Shown here: piece after piece, positions 8,841 to 51,032 of the stretch | How positions within the stretch are numbered: position 1 is the stretch's first letter | How the letters are laid out: every line of letters starts with the position of its first letter | NCBI RefSeq assembly: GCF_003334785.1 | Contig: NZ_QOWV01000012.1 | Direction: 5' to 3' (one strand) | Source: Escherichia coli | GTDB lineage: Bacteria > Pseudomonadota > Gammaproteobacteria > Enterobacterales > Enterobacteriaceae | Length of the DNA stretch: 64,000 nucleotides | Position numbers and translations under genes: made by a program | Notes under the pieces: model-generated | What the model saw: only the letters and a program-made list of their open reading frames with translations | Told to the model about the DNA's origin: nothing | Database searches by the model: none

Positions 8841-9785
8841 ATGACAAACTTCACGACCAGCACGCCGCATGACGCATTGTTTAAATCTTTTCTCACGCAT
8901 CCGGATACCGCGCGGGATTTTATGGAGATCCACTTACCTAAAGATTTACGTGAACTGTGCGATCTCGACAGCTTAAAACTTGAATCCGCCAGCTTTGTCG
9001 ATGAAAAATTGCGGGCGCTACATTCCGATATTCTGTGGTCGGTAAAGACCCGCGAAGGCGATGGCTATATTTATGTGGTGATTGAACATCAGAGCCGCGA
9101 GGATATTCATATGGCCTTTCGCCTGATGCGCTATTCTATGGCGGTGATGCAGCGCCATATCGAGCATGATAAACGCCAGCCGCTACCGCTGGTCATCCCG
9201 ATGCTGTTTTATCACGGTAGCCGTAGTCCTTACCCCTGGTCCCTGTGCTGGCTGGACGAATTTGCCGACCCGACTACCGCACGGAAAGTTTATACCGCCG
9301 CGTTCCCGCTGGTGGATGTCACTGTCGTGCCAGACGACGAGATTGTGCAGCACCGCAGAGTCGCTCTGTTGGAGTTGATCCAAAAGCATATTCGCCAGCG
9401 CGATCTGATGGAGCTTATCGATCAACTGGCAGTATTACTGGTTACAGGGTGCGCTAATGACAGCCAGATAACCGCGCTGTTAAATTACATTTTACTGACT
9501 GGCGATGAAGCGCGTTTTAAGGCGTTTATCAGCGAACTTACCAGGCGAATGCCACACCACAGGGAGCGAATAATGACAATTGCAGAGCGAATTCATAATG
9601 ATGGATGGCTGTTGGGAAGGGAGAAAGGGAAAGAAGAAGGGGAACAGCGCCTCCTCCGATTGTTGTTGCAGAATGGGGCAGATCCTGAATGGATACAAAA
9701 GATTACCGGACTTTCGGCAGAGCAAATGCAGGCATTAGAGCAGCCCTTGCCTGAAAGCAAGCGCGAACCATGGATCGAATACTAA
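8841..9785 (+). CDS. rpnD: Recombination-promoting nuclease RpnD (Rpn/YhgA-like, PDDEXK_7 family), intact
   Basis: 314-aa ORF; N-terminal HDALFKSFL...[10 protein letters not shown] motif characteristic of Rpn/transposase_31 proteins; location corresponds to yjiP/yjiQ. Confidence 0.75.
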
Positions 9786-11440: not shown

Positions 11441-11616
11441 GCTGTATTCCTTATTTGGACCATACAGAGAGAAAAACCGGTACAGATGAGGCTAAAAAAC
11501 CGGATGCAGATGCTGTTTTAACCTGTCTGTATGTTAAATAAAACTAATATTTGCATCTGTATTGTGAACTGCCAGAAGACGGATGATGAAGCCTCTGAAA
11601 GATGAGGAGGCAGCAG

Positions 11617-11781
11617 ATGGAATTTCACGAAAACAAAGCCAAAACGCCGTTTATCGGCCTAGTGCAACTCTGGCAGGAGGTGAGGCGTTGGCGGCGGCAA
11701 ATGCAGACCCGACGAGTGTTACAGCAGATGAGTGATGAACGGTTGAGGGATATCGGGTTACGCAGGGAGGATGTGGAGTGA
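11617..11781 (+). CDS. yjiS: DUF1127 small protein YjiS (54 aa)
   Basis: ATG at 11617, TGA at 11779-11781; translation MEFHENKAKTPFIGLVQLWQEVRRWRRQMQTRRVLQQMSDERLRDIGLRREDVE read directly from the sequence; below the ORF-track size cut-off. Confidence 0.65.
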   Translation: MEFHENKAKTPFIGLVQLWQEVRRWRRQMQTRRVLQQMSDERLRDIGLRREDVE

Positions 11782-12277
11782 GGGGGGATATAAATTTATA
11801 TAATAAAACGTTTTTATGTTTTTAAATTAAGTTATAAAAATTTTCCCGAGACTATTCATCAATAGGTATGGAGTGTACAGGAATATCTTCTTCACTAACC
11901 TCTTTAAACTCATGTCGATAATGGTCAAAAAACGCACAGTGATTACTTGTGTTTTTTGACTGACTTTACAACTCTCATTATTCGCTATTGTGAAGTTTCT
12001 CTAATTGTTTTATATCCTGGAAAGTTAAATGTTAGTTACTGCATACTTTTTTATTTTTTGAGATTTATTTTCATTTGAAATTATAAAGTCAGGTGATAAA
12101 TGAGTTGTGATTAATAGATAGTTGATATCATTTTTATCTAAAATTGATTTATGGTGCCGACCTGAAAAATTAGCTATTGCCGCCTGATTAATTATACGAT
12201 ATTTTTAAAGGTTTTCTTTCAAATTAGAAATATTCTGGGGTTTTGTTTTTGTATCTTTTATCTCTAAGGAGCTTGCT

Positions 12278-15043
12278 TTGGGTCAATCAGAATACATTTC
12301 ATGGGTAAAATGTACTTCCTGGCTAAGTAACTTTGTGAATCTTAGAGGGTTGAGACAACCGGATGGCCGTCCTCTTTATGAATATCATGCAACCAATGAT
12401 GAATATAACCAATTAACGCAGCTACTCCGTGCAGTCGGTCAATCACAATCTAATATATGTAATAAGGACTTTGCTGCCTGTTTTGTTCTTTTTTGCTCTG
12501 AGTGGTACCGCAGGGATTATGAACGGCAATGCGGATGGACGTGGGACCCTATATATAAAAAAATAGGGATTTCATTTACCGCCACAGAGCTTGGTACCAT
12601 CGTACCGAAAGGGATGGACGATTACTGGCTGCGCCCAATTCGATTTTATGAATCTGAACGACGCAATTTTCTCGGAACATTATTCAGTGAAGGTGGTTTA
12701 CCTTTCCGGTTACTCAAAGAATCAGACAGTCGCTTTCTGGCTGTTTTCTCCAGGATCCTTGGACAATATGAGCAAGCAAAGCAGTCAGGTTTTTCTGCCC
12801 TTTCGCTGGCAAGAGCCGTCATAGAAAAATTAGCGCTGCCAACTGTTTTTAGCGAAGATACTTCTGTAGAACTTATCAGTCATATGGCTGATAACCTCAA
12901 TTCCTTAGTACTTACTCACAACCTAATAAATCACAAAGAACCAGTACAACAGCTTGATAAGGTTCACCCTACCTGGCGAAGCGAGTTTCCAATACCGTTA
13001 GATGATGAAACAGGAACGCATTTTTTGAATGGACTGCTATGCGCAGCCTCTGTAGAGGCTAAGCCTCGACTACAAAAAAATAAGAGTACGCGTTGCCAAT
13101 TCTATTGGTCAGAAAAGCATCCAGATGAGCTTAGGGCGATAGTATCTCTCCCTGACGAAGTTTCCTTTCCTGTAACAAGCGAGCCGTCAACTACGCGCTT
13201 TGAACTTGCCATTTGTGAAGATGGTGAGGAAGTCTCTGGCCTTGGGCCAGCTTATGCTTCCCTGGAAAACAGACAGGCAACAGTTCGATTACGTAAAAGC
13301 GAAGTGAGATTTGTCAGGCAAAATCCATCGGCAGGTTTGTCGTTAGTGGCTCGTGCTGGAGGGATGATTGTTGGGAGCATTAAACTTGATGACAGTGAAA
13401 TTGCCATTGGTGAGGTGCCGTTAACCTTCATCGTTGATGCAGATCAATGGCTGTTACAGGGACAGGCCTCCTGTAGTGTGCAAAGCAGCGATGTTCTGAT
13501 TGTGCTCCCTCGGGACAATAGTACTGTTGCTGGTTTTGATGGCCAATCGAGTGCAGTAAACGTATTAGGACTTGTCGCTATGACTCTGGCGGTTGCTCTG
13601 CGTCAGGCGCTAGCGGGCGTTCTGGGTATCTCCGGCGCAGAACTCGGCTATTCTGTACGCCCGGTCAGACTGGAGGATGGGCAATCGGTATTAGCCGTTC
13701 AGCTTTATGATGTGATCAGCGGTGGTGCAGGTTTTGCCTCCAGCGCACCGGTACACATTGAAGCTATTTTGCAGGGAATGGTGAAACAGTTAGGTTGCCG
13801 CCATTGTGATACTGCATGTAGTGAATGCCTGCTTGATTCCCAGACTCGCCACGATCACGATTTGCTGGATCGCAAAGCGGCGCTGGCCTGGCTTGGCGAT
13901 GACTTCACGTATTACATCGGTTTACCGGATGAAGAGACATTCTCGCTGCCGGATGCCCGCTACTGCCCTGGCGCTATTGGCGATACGATTCGCCGGGCGA
14001 TTAACGAAGGCGCTGAAAAGCTCACCCTGTGGATGACCGGCGCGCCCAATGAGTGGGATTTATACGCCCGTCAGTTCCGCGCGGCGGTTCAGAGCTATCG
14101 GCTAAAAGACAACGTCGAGGTCGATCTTGTTATACCTGCGGGAGTGGATGACCCGGATCTGTTGTATGAACTATCGCAATTTACTGCGCTGGGTGTGCGG
14201 CTGTGCCATGTTGAACAGGATCTGCAATTGCCGATCGTTGCCCAGGTTACCTTTGCCGATCGCGTGATGACGCTGGCTTCTCGCAGCCAGCAGGCAACGA
14301 TTCCGGGGCCGGAGTGGCACCTGAATGACGAACTGGTGGTGCGTAGTCTCGGTTATAAAACGGTAGAACTGAACGAGTTTATTCTGCCGGCTAAAGCCGC
14401 CAACGCTGTCGAGCGGGTCAAAGACATTCAGATCCACAAACAGTTGAATGGACCACTTTCGCAGTTTGGACAACGCTTCTGGGACGTGCTGTTTAACGAC
14501 CATGAAGAAGCACAGTCACTGATGAATAACACGCGAATTACCGGCGTTCACTATACCGATCGCTATCTGCAAAACCCGGTTGCGCTGGCGTTGTTGGGAT
14601 CAATTCTGAGACCGCTAAAAACAAAGCTGACCGATGGCGCTGAAGTGGCGCTGGATACGCTGTTTAAAGATAAAGATCGCCCCGGTAACCGGCCTTTCCA
14701 TGACTGGATGAGCATAGCGGATTTTCAGGATTTCGCTGATCAGTGGTTTGCTGCTGCGCTGGGCAGGCCGATAGAACTAACGGTGTTCGACTCGCCGCGC
14801 GATATCCCTCACCATCGTAAACTGACGGTGACTTTTGAGGATGGTCAGGTTTTGAAGATCCGCTTCGATCAGGGGATGGGCTACTGGCGTATCAACTTTG
14901 CATCGCAATGGCATTACTTTGACTTCCGCGATGACGTTTCTTTCCAGTTAGTCAAAATGGCTCAGGCCTGCAATGAAGGAAATGTGGCCAACAGCGAAGA
15001 GAGCTGGGCAACGGATGTGCTGGTGGAGGTGAGCGCCTCCTGA
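12278..15043 (+). CDS. Uncharacterised 921-aa protein in the immigration-control region; candidate single-gene defence / anti-MGE factor, function unknown
   Basis: Uninterrupted 2766-nt ORF; TTG start at 12278 preceded by AAGGAG 8 nt upstream; 0.5-kb AT-rich leader; intrinsic terminator immediately after the stop; CxxCx3CxxC motif at aa 507-517; no Walker A found by eye. It occupies the slot where K-12 has yjiT/yjiV/mcrC/mcrB. Confidence 0.7.
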
Positions 15044-15052
15044 TGATGTGCC

Positions 15053-15081
15053 GCTCCCGATGTGGTGTCGGGAGCGTTTTT
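15053..15081 (+). terminator. Rho-independent terminator after the 921-aa ORF
   Basis: gctcccga-tgtggtg-tcgggagc hairpin followed by gttttt, 10 nt after the TGA at 15041-15043. Confidence 0.6.
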
Positions 15082-15085
15082 CCAT

Positions 15086-15427
15086 TCAGGCAACTTTCTG
15101 TTTACCGGCAATCACCCCAATAAATTCCTGCACCTGCTTTTGTTTACGCGCCGACAGCTTGCACACCCTGCGCAGCGACTGCATCAGTTCGCTCTCTTCG
15201 GCGGCGGGTGGTTGAGCGGTGAGGACGATGCAGCCTTCCATCACTTTGACATCTACCGCCGTGCCGGTGGCAAAACCGGCGGCTTCCAGCCACTGACCTT
15301 TCAGGGTGATGGCGGGAATATGCGCGTGATCCGGGTAGCGGCTCGCATAACCGACGGTGACATGACGGTTATTTGCCGGAGAGACTTCTGCTTCGAACGG
15401 TTGTGCAATAGAATACGTGTCAGTCAT
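15086..15427 (-). CDS. symE: SOS-induced toxin-like protein SymE (type I toxin, AbrB/SpoVT fold)
   Basis: ORF 15086-15484; ATG at 15427 gives 113 aa starting [52 protein letters not shown], matching SymE. Confidence 0.85.
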
Positions 15428-15497
15428 AACTGCTATTCTCCGATAATAGTGATTGTGATGAGCGGTGCGGGTGTGTTGGCGCACATCCGCACCGCGC
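15421..15497 (+). ncRNA. symR: SymR antisense sRNA (cis-encoded antitoxin RNA of symE), approximate ends
   Basis: Established knowledge: SymR (~77 nt) is transcribed antisense across the symE RBS/start from a promoter inside symE. Sequence shows a TAGAAT -10 at 15409-15414 on the plus strand and a 9-bp stem hairpin (gcggtgcgg ... ccgcaccgc) ending at 15496. Confidence 0.45.
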
Positions 15498-15503
15498 TAA
15501 ATA

Positions 15504-15519
15504 CCTGGATATATCATCA
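15504..15519. promoter_or_regulatory. Candidate LexA box in the symE promoter
   Basis: CTGGATATATCATCAG fits CTG-N10-CAG with an AT-rich core, 77-92 nt upstream of the symE start; symE is known to be LexA-repressed. Confidence 0.45.
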
Positions 15520-15607
15520 GTAAATACAGGGAAAGTCCAGCTAAAAATAGAATAAAATGGTCAGTTCCTGGAATGATTTAAATATATTTATGTGAGTTAT
15601 GATTGGC

Positions 15608-15654: not shown

Positions 15655-16968
15655 TCAGGATTTTTTACGCGAGGCTTTTTTACCTCCGCTGGCTGCGCGT
15701 TCAGCTTTGATTTTTTCCAGCAACGCGGCGGCGCTGTTTTCTCCGCTGATTAATTCCGGGTTTTCGGCCCGCCACTGGGCGGTGAGTTCACCACGGAACG
15801 CTTTTGCCAGGATGGATTGCGTCAGGTTGTTAACGCGGGCTAAGGCGTTGTTGACCTGTTTTTCTATGGTGTCTGCGTAGGCGAAGAGCTGCTCGACGCG
15901 GCGAACGATTTCGTGTTGTTCGGGGAGTGGAGGAACAGTTATTGGGTATGCAATTAATTTCTGTGCATTAATATTTGATTGACTGACCCCATCAGATTTT
16001 ACTGAGTAGCAATATTGCCTCCCCAAAATGCTATTTAAATGGTAGTTAAGATAGTCAGGGTTTAAATCAGGTAAACATTGAACCCTAATCAAATAACCTG
16101 CATAAATAGCTGGTTGCTCTGATTTATATATGGCTGTTTTCCCGACAAGTTCAGGACTATTTGTACGATTGAATAATACATCATTGTACTCAAGTTTATA
16201 CTTTTCAATTTCTATGGTATCTGAAGTATAGACTAGATCCGTCCAGTCCAATTTTCCGCCCTGAAGATTGCCCATTCTTAATACAGGAATGAGTCCTTCT
16301 TTATTAGACTTAGATGACGTTCCATAACTTGGTTTTTTTATAAATTCCCCAAGTTTGCCTTCTATCCACCCAGACAGGCTCGAATTATCTCTCCAGTCTT
16401 CAGTTAGTTTTCCACTTACCGCGGCACCCAGCACCGCCTGACGAAAACGTTTCAGGATTTGTGGGATTTGCTCAAGACGTGCTTTGGTGCTCTCTACCTG
16501 CGCCAGCAGCGTATCGAGTTTTTCAGCGATGATTTTTTGTTCTGAAATTGGAGGAAGTTGTATTTCCCAAGCCTCCATTCCAGCTTTGGTAATATGTGGC
16601 ATTGCCACGCCGTGAGCCGATGCTTTAAGTGCCTCTGTAATATTCAATAATGCATAATAAGCAAATTGCTTATTAAGTGCAGGGGATGTTTCAATCTTCC
16701 AAATATGGTAGTGATAAATTAGTTTATGATCCCACTTCGACCAATATGGACCAAATGTTGCTGACCAAGCATATAGGAGATCATTTTTATAGCAATATTT
16801 ATCTTCCTGTAGCTCTAAGTTGGAATAAAACCATTTATTCCCTCCATTCAAATTTTGAATTCTGAGAATAGGAACACCTTCTGTGAGCATTTCTTCTTTC
16901 TTATATGCTCTGCCATTGATGAGGGTCAAAACATCACCCAACTGGCATATTTGCCAATTTTTACTCAT
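15655..16968 (-). CDS. hsdS: Type I restriction-modification specificity subunit HsdS (type IA / EcoKI family frame, non-EcoKI target-recognition domains)
   Basis: 437-aa ORF; central (LPPISEQKIIAEKLDTLLAQVESTKARLEQIPQILKRFRQAVL) and C-terminal (EQHEIVRRVEQLFAYADTIEKQVNNALARVNNLTQSILAKAFRGELTAQWRAENP) conserved regions match the EcoKI family; the two variable domains differ; ATGA overlap with hsdM. Confidence 0.9.
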   Translation of the reverse strand: MSKNWQICQLGDVLTLINGRAYKKEEMLTEGVPILRIQNLNGGNKWFYSNLELQEDKYCYKNDLLYAWSATFGPYWSKWDHKLIYHYHIWKIETSPALNKQFAYYALLNITEALKASAHGVAMPHITKAGMEAWEIQLPPISEQKIIAEKLDTLLAQVESTKARLEQIPQILKRFRQAVLGAAVSGKLTEDWRDNSSLSGWIEGKLGEFIKKPSYGTSSKSNKEGLIPVLRMGNLQGGKLDWTDLVYTSDTIEIEKYKLEYNDVLFNRTNSPELVGKTAIYKSEQPAIYAGYLIRVQCLPDLNPDYLNYHLNSILGRQYCYSVKSDGVSQSNINAQKLIAYPITVPPLPEQHEIVRRVEQLFAYADTIEKQVNNALARVNNLTQSILAKAFRGELTAQWRAENPELISGENSAAALLEKIKAERAASGGKKASRKKS

Positions 16969-48451: not shown

Positions 48452-48925
48452 TTATACGCGAGGGCGCTTGCGGTACAACCATAATCCAGGAATGGAAAGA
48501 CCGATGGATAACGCACCAACAATCGATGAAGCTGTAAGAAAGTTGGTTAACAGGGTAATCATCAACGGTTCGCTGTAACCTAACTGGCTGATTTTTACCG
48601 CCGAAATCATTGCGGTATAAGCCGATATGCCCGGGAACATAGGGATAACGGCCGCCACGGTAAACACTTTCGGATGCGCCAGATACCAGCGCGACCATTG
48701 AATACCAATGGTGCCGACCAGCATAGAAGCCATAAAAGTTGACCACTCAATATTCAGCCCGCTGGTCATTAAGATCATTCGTGAACCATGGCCAATCGCG
48801 CCAAGCAGCGCACACCAGCGTAACGCCCGCACGGGAACGTTGAACACCATCGCAAAGCCGACCGCTGGAATGGCGGCGAGGATCATATCCTGCGCCAATG
48901 CAAACAGAAACTCGATCACACCCAT
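48452..48925 (-). CDS. yjjB: ThrE-family exporter small subunit YjjB
   Basis: ORF 48452-48940; ATG at 48925 gives 157 aa starting [31 protein letters not shown]. Confidence 0.8.
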
Positions 48926-49686
48926 CCGCGTAGCCCCCAAATCGTCAGTGCCATCACTACGCCGACGCAGGTAGCCAGCGTCAGCAGACTGGCGATCGCC
49001 CAGCGTGCCAGTCCGGTATTGATGTGGCCTTTAAACATATCGGCGACGGCATTAATCAACGGAAAGCCCGGCACCAGCAGCAGAACGCTGGCGGCCATCG
49101 CAATGGTGGGTGTATCGCTGAAAGTGGGGAGTTGCAAAAGCAATCCGGAAATGGTGGTGGCGGCGAAAGCGGTAAGGCAAAAGTTGATCTGTGGATGAAG
49201 ATGACGTTGTGCCAGCAGCTGGCGGATATACATCGCGGTCGTACTGGCAAAGAAGGTGATGACGGCACCATCCCAGCCACCGTTATTGAGTTTACAGAAA
49301 CAGGCGCAAGAAAGGCCAACCATTAAGGCTACCAGCCATCTTGGGTAACGTAATGGCTGAATTTGGCTAAATCGTTTCTCTACGCCTTTGTAATCCAGCA
49401 GATGATGCTCCGCAAGAATCACAATGTGCTGGACTTCAGTCACCACATGCATATTAATGCCGCGATCGTGATTTTTTCGTGTCGATGTCAGGCATTGCCC
49501 ATCTTTAATAGTTGTCAGCACTATGGCGTTCGAAGAGATAGAACTTTCGACGCTGTCCATTCCCAACGCCCGACCCAGTCGTGAGGAAAGCTCATCAACC
49601 AACGCGCTTTCCGCACCATGTTGCAAAAGAAATAATCCACACTGGATACAAAGCCGCGTTACGGCTCGCTGTTGCTCAGTTTGCAT
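48916..49686 (-). CDS. yjjP: ThrE-family exporter large subunit YjjP (succinate exporter component)
   Basis: ORF 48916-49749; ATG at 49686 gives 256 aa starting [32 protein letters not shown]; 10-nt overlap with yjjB. Confidence 0.8.
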
Positions 49687-50306
49687 AACTCGCCCTTTGT
49701 CATAGACGTGCTGCGTATTGTTCAGATAATGAGAATCCATTTGTATCATGAAGCACGGTTGTTTTGCGGTAGGTTAAGATCAAAATTGCGCTGATTAATC
49801 CTGGTTATCGGGACAAGCTCGGTGATAAAAAGCGAATTATCTCTCGCCGCAAACAAACTATCACATGAATATTATCACTATAATGAATTTATTGTTTTAG
49901 CCTTTACGGGTCAGGATAATAGATAGCTGGGCGCGTTTTTTAGTGTTAACAAGTTAAAATCATCAGATTTTATTGAATAAATATTGATTGTGTGATTCCC
50001 GCATTCTGCGGGAAGGGATATCATTTAATTATAAATTAAATGAATGTGATTTCTGTTTTTCATTAAGTATTCCTAACAACTTAATGTAGATATTTTAAAT
50101 GTCTCCAGGCTATTTCACCAGGTTATCATTTGATGCTAACCTTCTGACACATGCAGTGGAGTTGTTGTGCAGCAGGAGTATGCTGATATGAAAGTGAATG
50201 CTAAGGATAATTTATTCGCTTAATCTATTAATTTGCTGGAAACATTTAAGGAATGAATATCCTGAATAAACCATCATAATTTTTAGACAGTGGATGTGGA
50301 GGAAAT

Positions 50307-51032
50307 ATGTTGCCAGGATGCTGCAAAAATGGAATTGTTATCAGTAAAATACCTGTTATGCAAGCAGGGTTAAAAGAGGTCATGAGGACTCACTTCCCTG
50401 AATATGAAATAATATCCAGCGCCTCTGCGGAGGACCTTACCTTATTACAATTACGTCGTTCCGGATTAGTCATTGCTGATTTAGCCGGTGAAAGTGAAGA
50501 TCCACGTTCTGTTTGTGAACATTATTATTCTTTAATCTCACAATATCGGGAAATTCACTGGGTTTTCATGGTGTCACGCTCCTGGTATTCCCAGGCAGTA
50601 GAACTGCTCATGTGCCCTACGGCGACGTTATTGTCTGATGTTGAACCCATTGAGAATCTGGTCAAGACCGTACGTTCCGGCAATACGCACGCAGAGCGTA
50701 TCAGCGCCATGCTGACCTCTCCGGCAATGACTGAAACTCATGATTTTAGCTATCGCTCCGTCATTCTCACTCTTTCAGAGCGCAAGGTACTGCGGCTATT
50801 AGGTAAAGGATGGGGCATCAACCAGATAGCTTCATTGCTTAAGAAAAGTAATAAAACTATCAGCGCCCAAAAAAACAGTGCGATGCGTCGACTGGCAATT
50901 CACAGCAACGCTGAAATGTATGCATGGATAAATAGCGCGCAGGGTGCAAGAGAACTTAACTTGCCTTCTGTTTATGGAGATGCCGCAGAATGGAACACAG
51001 CCGAATTAAGAAGAGAAATGTCGCACTCATAG
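50307..51032 (+). CDS. yjjQ: LuxR/FixJ-family transcriptional regulator YjjQ
   Basis: 241 aa with C-terminal LuxR-type HTH; AT-rich H-NS-type upstream region. Confidence 0.8.

Follow-up and report, generated by a model that had tools for sequence, protein, structure and literature searches.

The stretch of DNA analysed here, referred to below as the window, comprises 64,000 nucleotides of an Escherichia coli genome (contig NZ_QOWV01000012.1). A Rpn-family gene, yjiR, yjiS, a long open reading frame (ORF), symE with SymR, hsdS, hsdM and hsdR follow one another in that order (Table 1). The ORF, at positions 12278–15043, is one open frame of 921 codons in which residues 1–432 of DruH are joined to residues 1626–2114 of DruE. 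Its TTG start at 12278 is also the start in RefSeq, and the intact druH of the reference locus L003 begins at the equivalent position. RefSeq names the product (L001 3779–6544) a 'STY4851/ECs_5259 family protein', without a pseudogene flag, and the DruE tail makes up 53% of it; relatives with the identical junction are variously annotated as carrying two partial pseudogenes. A plus-strand ORF at 15062–15523, which has no family match and overlaps both symE and SymR, is treated as spurious. We also note that the Rpn-family recombination-promoting nuclease gene at 8841–9785 (plus strand) is intact, with 314 codons, whereas its K-12 counterpart yjiP/yjiQ is interrupted by a stop and counts as a pseudogene; yjiP has been linked to recA-independent recombination at the immigration-control locus (PMC4498929).

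Table 1. Features of the yjiS–symE interval in window coordinates. L003 is the intact reference genome (NZ_CM196106), L006 is strain 120899 (NZ_CP025916) and L007 is an empty-site genome.
Feature	Position	Strand	Remarks and evidence
yjiS (DUF1127)	11617–11781	+	last conserved gene on the left; RefSeq annotation of an essentially identical strain
druHE operon leader, 496 bp	11782–12277	+	contiguous with druH in L003; absent from empty-site L007
sigma-70 promoter TTGAGA-18-TATAAA	12058–12087	+	exact match to the promoter of the K-12 yjiS>yjiT spacer
Shine-Dalgarno AAGGAG (12266–12271), 6-nt spacer, TTG start (12278–12280)	12266–12280	+	sequence
druH' (yjiT'), codons 1–432 of 1096	12278–13573	+	PADLOC, NCBIfam, comparison with L003
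deletion junction 13573/13574	13572–13574	+	three-way alignment and BLAST coordinates
'druE (yjiV-type helicase gene), codons 1626–2114 and stop	13574–15043	+	PADLOC, comparison with L003 and L006
MrfA-type zinc-binding (MZB/DUF1998) domain from DruE, residues 438–518	13589–13831	+	Pfam PF09369
symE	15086–15427	-	first conserved gene right of the slot; annotation and BLAST
SymR antisense RNA (symE antitoxin)	15422–15498	+	Rfam RF01809, 89.5 bits against a gathering score of 61

The two halves of the ORF are identified by separate profiles, both of Druantia type III. Residues 1–437 match positions 1–437 of the 1100 in the PADLOC profile DruH3 (PDLC00049; E = 3.5e-214, 711.8 bits), and residues 432–918 match positions 1564–2054 of the 2055 in DruE3 (PDLC00037; E = 1.7e-129, 431.9 bits). 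In addition, the NCBIfam family YjiT_fam (STY4851/ECs_5259) covers residues 15–431 with its positions 1–417 of 1090 (E = 1.5e-150). The sole Pfam match is the MrfA zinc-binding domain PF09369 at residues 438–518 (E = 1.7e-8), in which the cysteine motifs CRHC...CSEC are present. The gene, labelled an orphan in an earlier reading made from the letters alone (the sequence-only reading), is by these profile matches the N-terminus of DruH (residues 1–432) followed by the C-terminus of DruE (residues 433–921). Compared with the proteins of the intact locus, the first part is 97.5% identical to DruH 1–435 of L003 and the second 98.4% identical to its DruE 1625–2114.

The base composition changes abruptly along the leader and the ORF. 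The leader (11782–12277) has 28.0% GC and contains the lowest 500-bp value of the 64-kb window (28.2%), for which the mean of the 500-bp values is 51.8% with a standard deviation of 5.1%. Sliding windows trace a trough of 28–32% at 11750–12350, a level of 41–48% up to about 13550, and one of 51–59% up to about 15500, the last taking in the rest of the ORF (to 15043) and symE. The break reported by the sequence-only reading is thus real, with its three levels lying where that reading had placed them: the estimate of 28–30% for the leader agrees with the measurement, the step itself stands, and the by-eye values for the ORF prove slightly low for the 5' part (about 40%, against 44.3% measured over 12278–13500) and slightly off for the GC-normal part from about 13500 (about 55%, against 53.5% over 13501–15043). 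GC at the third codon position differs between the two parts as well. Divided at the deletion junction, the druH part (12278–13573) has 44.4% GC and a GC3 of 36%, and the druE part (13574–15043) has 53.8% GC and a GC3 of 58%; for comparison, GC3 is 60–69% in neighbouring core genes and 38% in hsdS. The single maximum-likelihood change point within the ORF is position 13449, with a 2-lnL support interval of 12960–13608 that includes the junction 13573/13574, and its log-likelihood gain of 12.4 was not reached in any of 200 shuffles, the largest of which gave 12.06.

A second internal GC break of the region is formed by hsdS (15655–16968, minus strand), which has 41.9% GC and the low GC3 given above beside hsdM and hsdR at 54–56% GC, and which fits a swappable specificity subunit. 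All strains of the window type, and L006 as well, share one HsdS protein (WP_000042302.1).

The origin of the ORF becomes apparent from a megablast search of a 4.1-kb query against 5,426 complete E. coli genomes. The intact reference L003 carries, in order, yjiS, yjiT/druH (1096 aa), a DEAD/DEAH helicase gene/druE (2114 aa), mcrC, mcrB and symE. Window positions 11500–13573 correspond to L003 14001–16075 with 96.9% DNA identity, and positions 13568–15082 to L003 22953–24468 with 97.5%. Missing from the window is L003 16076–22957, a segment of 6,882 bp (3 × 2294) that runs from druH codon 433 to druE codon 1625; because its length is a multiple of three, the frame stays open across the join. 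The join falls at a codon boundary, with CTT (DruH codon 432) before it and GTC (DruE codon 1626) after it, and lies at an exact microhomology of 2 bp (TT, 13572–13573) within an imperfect one, GGA(C)TT. No insertion sequence (IS) element is found at the join, and the short microhomology without one points to illegitimate recombination or replication slippage. What gave rise to the chimera is an internal deletion of 6,882 bp between the adjacent druH and druE genes of one accessory operon.

The same comparison accounts for the GC profile. In L003 the leader has 28.6% GC, druH 45.2% (44.4% in its first 1.3 kb) and druE 51.1% overall, with dips to 44–47% and a final 1.5 kb of 53.8%. The intact operon already grades from AT-rich to GC-normal, and the deletion joins its two ends, thus producing a step in the window. 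The step in the ORF very probably marks the deletion seam, with a decayed remnant of a known defence system left behind. In the course of events that we propose, the slot between yjiS and symE would formerly have held a complete Druantia type III operon, comprising the AT-rich leader with its promoter, druH, and a druE encoding a YprA/MrfA-like SF2 helicase of 2114 aa. A single illegitimate-recombination event at the 2-bp microhomology would then have removed 6,882 bp; the loss, being in frame, would have left a single 921-codon DruH(1–432)::DruE(1626–2114) frame and would have brought the GC extremes of the operon (28% in the leader, 45% in druH and 54% at the 3' end of druE) into the abutment seen as a step.

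The K-12 yjiT'/yjiV' remnant occupies the same slot, has the same leader and promoter, is about 97% identical and likewise consists of pieces of druH and druE left by deletion. However, relative to the intact operon it carries two other deletions instead of the one in the window. The first, by BLAST coordinates, spans L003 16289–19305 (about 3.0 kb; ~3,022 bp), with a 5-bp overlap at its junction (L002 8285–8289, in K-12 locus coordinates); the second spans L003 21456–23639, with its junction at L002 10434/10435. Since the length of the first is not a multiple of three, K-12, unlike the window, is without an open fusion frame. K-12 further differs by an internal stop and adjacent mcrBC, and it keeps a helicase part that the window lacks. 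In turn, it lacks the counterpart of window 13573–14255, so that the decay in K-12 is independent; as the window retains this segment, derivation of its allele from the K-12 allele is rejected.

We next consider where the variable cassette begins and ends, a point on which the sequence-only reading was specific. It had placed the cassette border inside the gene, and proposed that a horizontally acquired, AT-rich N-terminal module had arrived with its promoter and become attached to a C-terminal module conserved by descent. The chimera itself is borne out, with its seam marked by the GC step, and a real step in both GC and GC3 within an ORF of a known hypervariable region speaks in favour of such a graft. 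The flanks, however, tell otherwise. The left conserved flank ends at about 11787, 6 bp past the yjiS stop, and the right one resumes at the symE stop (15086–15090), both outside the ORF. Most of the 5,426 genomes match the query just over yjiS (to 11781–11787), over symE (from 15086–15090), or over both. In empty-site genomes yjiS is joined directly to symE, within about 790 bp, and in others the interval is filled by GmrSD (DUF262/DUF1524) genes. Between its conserved flanks the slot thus holds nothing, GmrSD, druHE with or without mcrBC, or remnants, as is characteristic of a variable cassette of the immigration-control region, and published genetics place yjiT inside the proximal border of that region (PMC4498929). 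The supposed core module is no less accessory than the 5' half: just 649 of the 5,426 genomes (~12%) have a match to either side of the junction, and the deleted segment has any match in 627, covering at least 80% of its length in 232 of those. Both halves being accessory and the flanks being conserved only beyond the gene, the variable slot takes in the leader together with the entire ORF. Alignment across genomes, which had been suggested as a check, places the start of synteny outside the gene instead of within it. Nor is the N-terminal part foreign to the C-terminal one, since both are collinear with one intact two-gene operon and have diverged from it to a similar degree (96.9% and 97.5% identity). 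A graft with the border inside the gene is therefore highly improbable, and there is next to no chance that the junction is an artefact of assembly or sequencing: no point in favour of an artefact was found, the identical junction occurs in eight independent complete genomes from various hosts and countries, and it recurs in further strains with IS insertions beside it.

The mcrBC genes are absent from the window, and the sequence 3' of druE runs directly up to the symE stop codon (15083–15090). A 2.6-kb mcrCB block sits at exactly that point in L003 (24469–27074) and in K-12, and its position looks like a second, separate cassette slot.

The age of the deletion can be gauged from strain 120899 (L006). 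Its SymE, HsdS and HsdM proteins are the same as in window-type strains, its full-length druE lies directly beside symE without mcrBC, and it is 99.9% identical in DNA to window 13568–15600. The deletion is thus recent, and the ancestor was already without mcrBC. For the same reason, loss of mcrBC in the event that produced the deletion is rejected. The 5' end of druH in this enterotoxigenic (ETEC) strain is truncated beside an IS621 transposase gene (L006 2200–5118), and upstream of it lie msrA and tamA where yjiS would be expected; this implies a rearrangement associated with an IS, one end of which falls within druH.

The fusion allele itself continues to decay. The same junction is present, with 100% identity over 300 bp, in the eight complete genomes mentioned above, and the 4.1-kb query is matched over 80% or more of its length in 22 genomes. 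Beyond the clean carriers, the fusion in those examined holds IS insertions, and elements of the IS600, IS30 and IS3 families lie inside it in the relatives L004 and L005. The exact 921-aa protein is found on 27 contigs in public databases, and close variants on dozens more; the copies are 99.9–100% identical, which leaves no power for dN/dS. Further decay alleles are seen in E. coli B-type strains, in XJ34, in EC24 and in the IS621-truncated druH of L006. The fusion thus has the marks of a gene remnant, with essential parts missing and further disruption in relatives of the same haplotype.

What the deletion removed can be read against the intact proteins. The fusion is without 61% of DruH, retaining residues 1–432 of 1096 where a full-length protein has about 1,100, and without 77% of DruE, the helicase core included. 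The Walker A motif TGSGKT (residues 127–132) and the DEAH motif (264–267) of intact DruE are both in the deleted segment, and the DruE part of the fusion starts at residue 1626, beyond any SF2 helicase core. According to a structural and genetic study of an E. coli DruHE system, defence depends on the helicase core and on the PD dimerisation subdomain, the C-terminal PLD-like domains of DruE are without an HKD motif and dispensable, and the ssDNA-binding residues of DruH lie in Ig5 and the C-terminal domain, at 670–1067 of the studied orthologue (10.64898/2026.05.12.722862). Another preprint ascribes nuclease activity to the last PLD domain of DruE, with R1258 in its catalytic pocket (PMC13192584). 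We note that these two 2026 preprints conflict over the C-terminal PLD domains, and that the fusion retains exactly the disputed region. The domain map is that of ATCC 8739 DruHE, and its residue-level transfer to this locus is approximate and by homology; the ATCC 8739 protein, whose Walker A motif is at 117–122 instead of 127–132, is apparently another orthologue. The fusion retains the N-terminal part of DruH, the zinc-binding module of DruE and the C-terminal PLD-like region. Gone are both helicase ATPase motifs and, on this map, the would-be cap and dimerisation region and the part of DruH that would carry the ssDNA-binding site.

Taken together, these losses suggest that the fusion is most likely a non-functional remnant which, on balance, is unable to work as a Druantia system and is in all likelihood inert, though some residual activity is conceivable. 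The counterpoint is that the frame is open at the junction, and that the promoter, Shine-Dalgarno sequence and start codon are intact; the fusion may be transcribed from the native promoter unless it is silenced by H-NS. One could accordingly regard the in-frame fusion as a functional new gene under selection, which might serve as a regulator or decoy or as a minimal nuclease that combines the N-domain of DruH with the zinc module and the PLD domain. This we consider very unlikely, even though all 921 codons stand open behind native expression signals, the fusion occurs in several lineages and sources, and one group claims nuclease activity for the retained PLD domain (PMC13192584). A random deletion is in frame one third of the time, which makes the open frame weak evidence; the allele is so young (99.9% identity to an intact relative) that selection has had no time to show; and strains of the same haplotype tolerate IS insertions in the fusion. 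As for the nuclease, R1258 of the PLD pocket would be among the deleted residues (its numbering, taken from another orthologue, is approximate), the other group finds the PLD domains dispensable and without a catalytic motif, and a search of the intact DruE sequence for H.K....D found none. There is some possibility that the fusion is selectively retained, given the 27 contigs and the dozens of close variants. It is very unlikely, though, that it is expressed and active, be it as a helicase-less nuclease or sensor or as a partner with a dominant-negative effect on Druantia or on related YprA systems; if it were, the locus would be no debris but a case of domain shuffling tried out by nature within a defence hotspot.

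The leader deserves separate mention. A genomic SELEX study lists the K-12 yjiS>yjiT spacer as a site of the RpoD holoenzyme, with the promoter TTGAGA-18-TATAAA, and marks it as containing an H-NS site (PMC3946193). A direct pattern search finds this promoter in the window as a single exact match, at 12058–12087, where none is expected by chance. A simple promoter scan reported instead one weak site (12115–12144), no better than in shuffles, and did not report TTGAGA-18-TATAAA. No intrinsic terminator is predicted 3' of yjiS. The high-affinity H-NS 10-mer TCGATAAATT has just one match with at most two mismatches in the leader, at 11793–11802, which is uninformative. With AT-richness and the promoter overlapping in the leader, its silencing by H-NS in this strain is plausible, and it is reasonable to apply the H-NS idea to the native leader of a Druantia operon and not to a graft. 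The second-lowest GC stretch of the window, at 33–35%, is likewise intergenic (49700–50300), separating the divergent ORFs 48916–49749 (minus strand) and 50307–51032 (plus strand). Judged by its position, this stretch is presumably the yjjP/yjjQ-bglJ spacer. The yjjP/yjjQ-bglJ spacer is also marked as bound by H-NS in the genomic SELEX study (PMC3946193).

In sum, the ORF is what a recent in-frame deletion has left of a known defence system, at a locus already known to be hypervariable. Its significance lies mainly in annotation and bookkeeping, and it raises no new biological question: a protein named 'STY4851/ECs_5259 family protein' is a chimera of the two genes of Druantia III, which defence-system finders should class as a remnant. 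The locus further provides a clean and datable case of how defence operons of the immigration-control region decay, lineage by lineage, via independent deletions and IS hits, and it demonstrates that a GC step within a gene can mark a deletion seam instead of a border of horizontal transfer.

Among known systems, the closest is Druantia type III (DruH–DruE, studied from ATCC 8739 and EDL933), whose DruH3 and DruE3 profiles are matched by the two halves of the ORF. In the same slot the intact system is a two-gene druH–druE operon behind an AT-rich leader, whereas in the window a single fused ORF without the helicase core takes the place of separate adjacent genes; from the position of its Walker A motif, the copy in the immigration-control region is apparently not the orthologue that has been studied. 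With the YprA/MrfA-family helicases that carry a DUF1998/MZB module (DISARM DrmB, Dpd and Druantia), the fusion shares the MZB domain, but here the module is stranded, without a helicase domain. Finally, the leader, with its 28% GC, resembles the AT-rich accessory promoters bound by H-NS, its K-12 counterpart being listed as a constitutive promoter bound by RpoD that overlaps an H-NS SELEX site.
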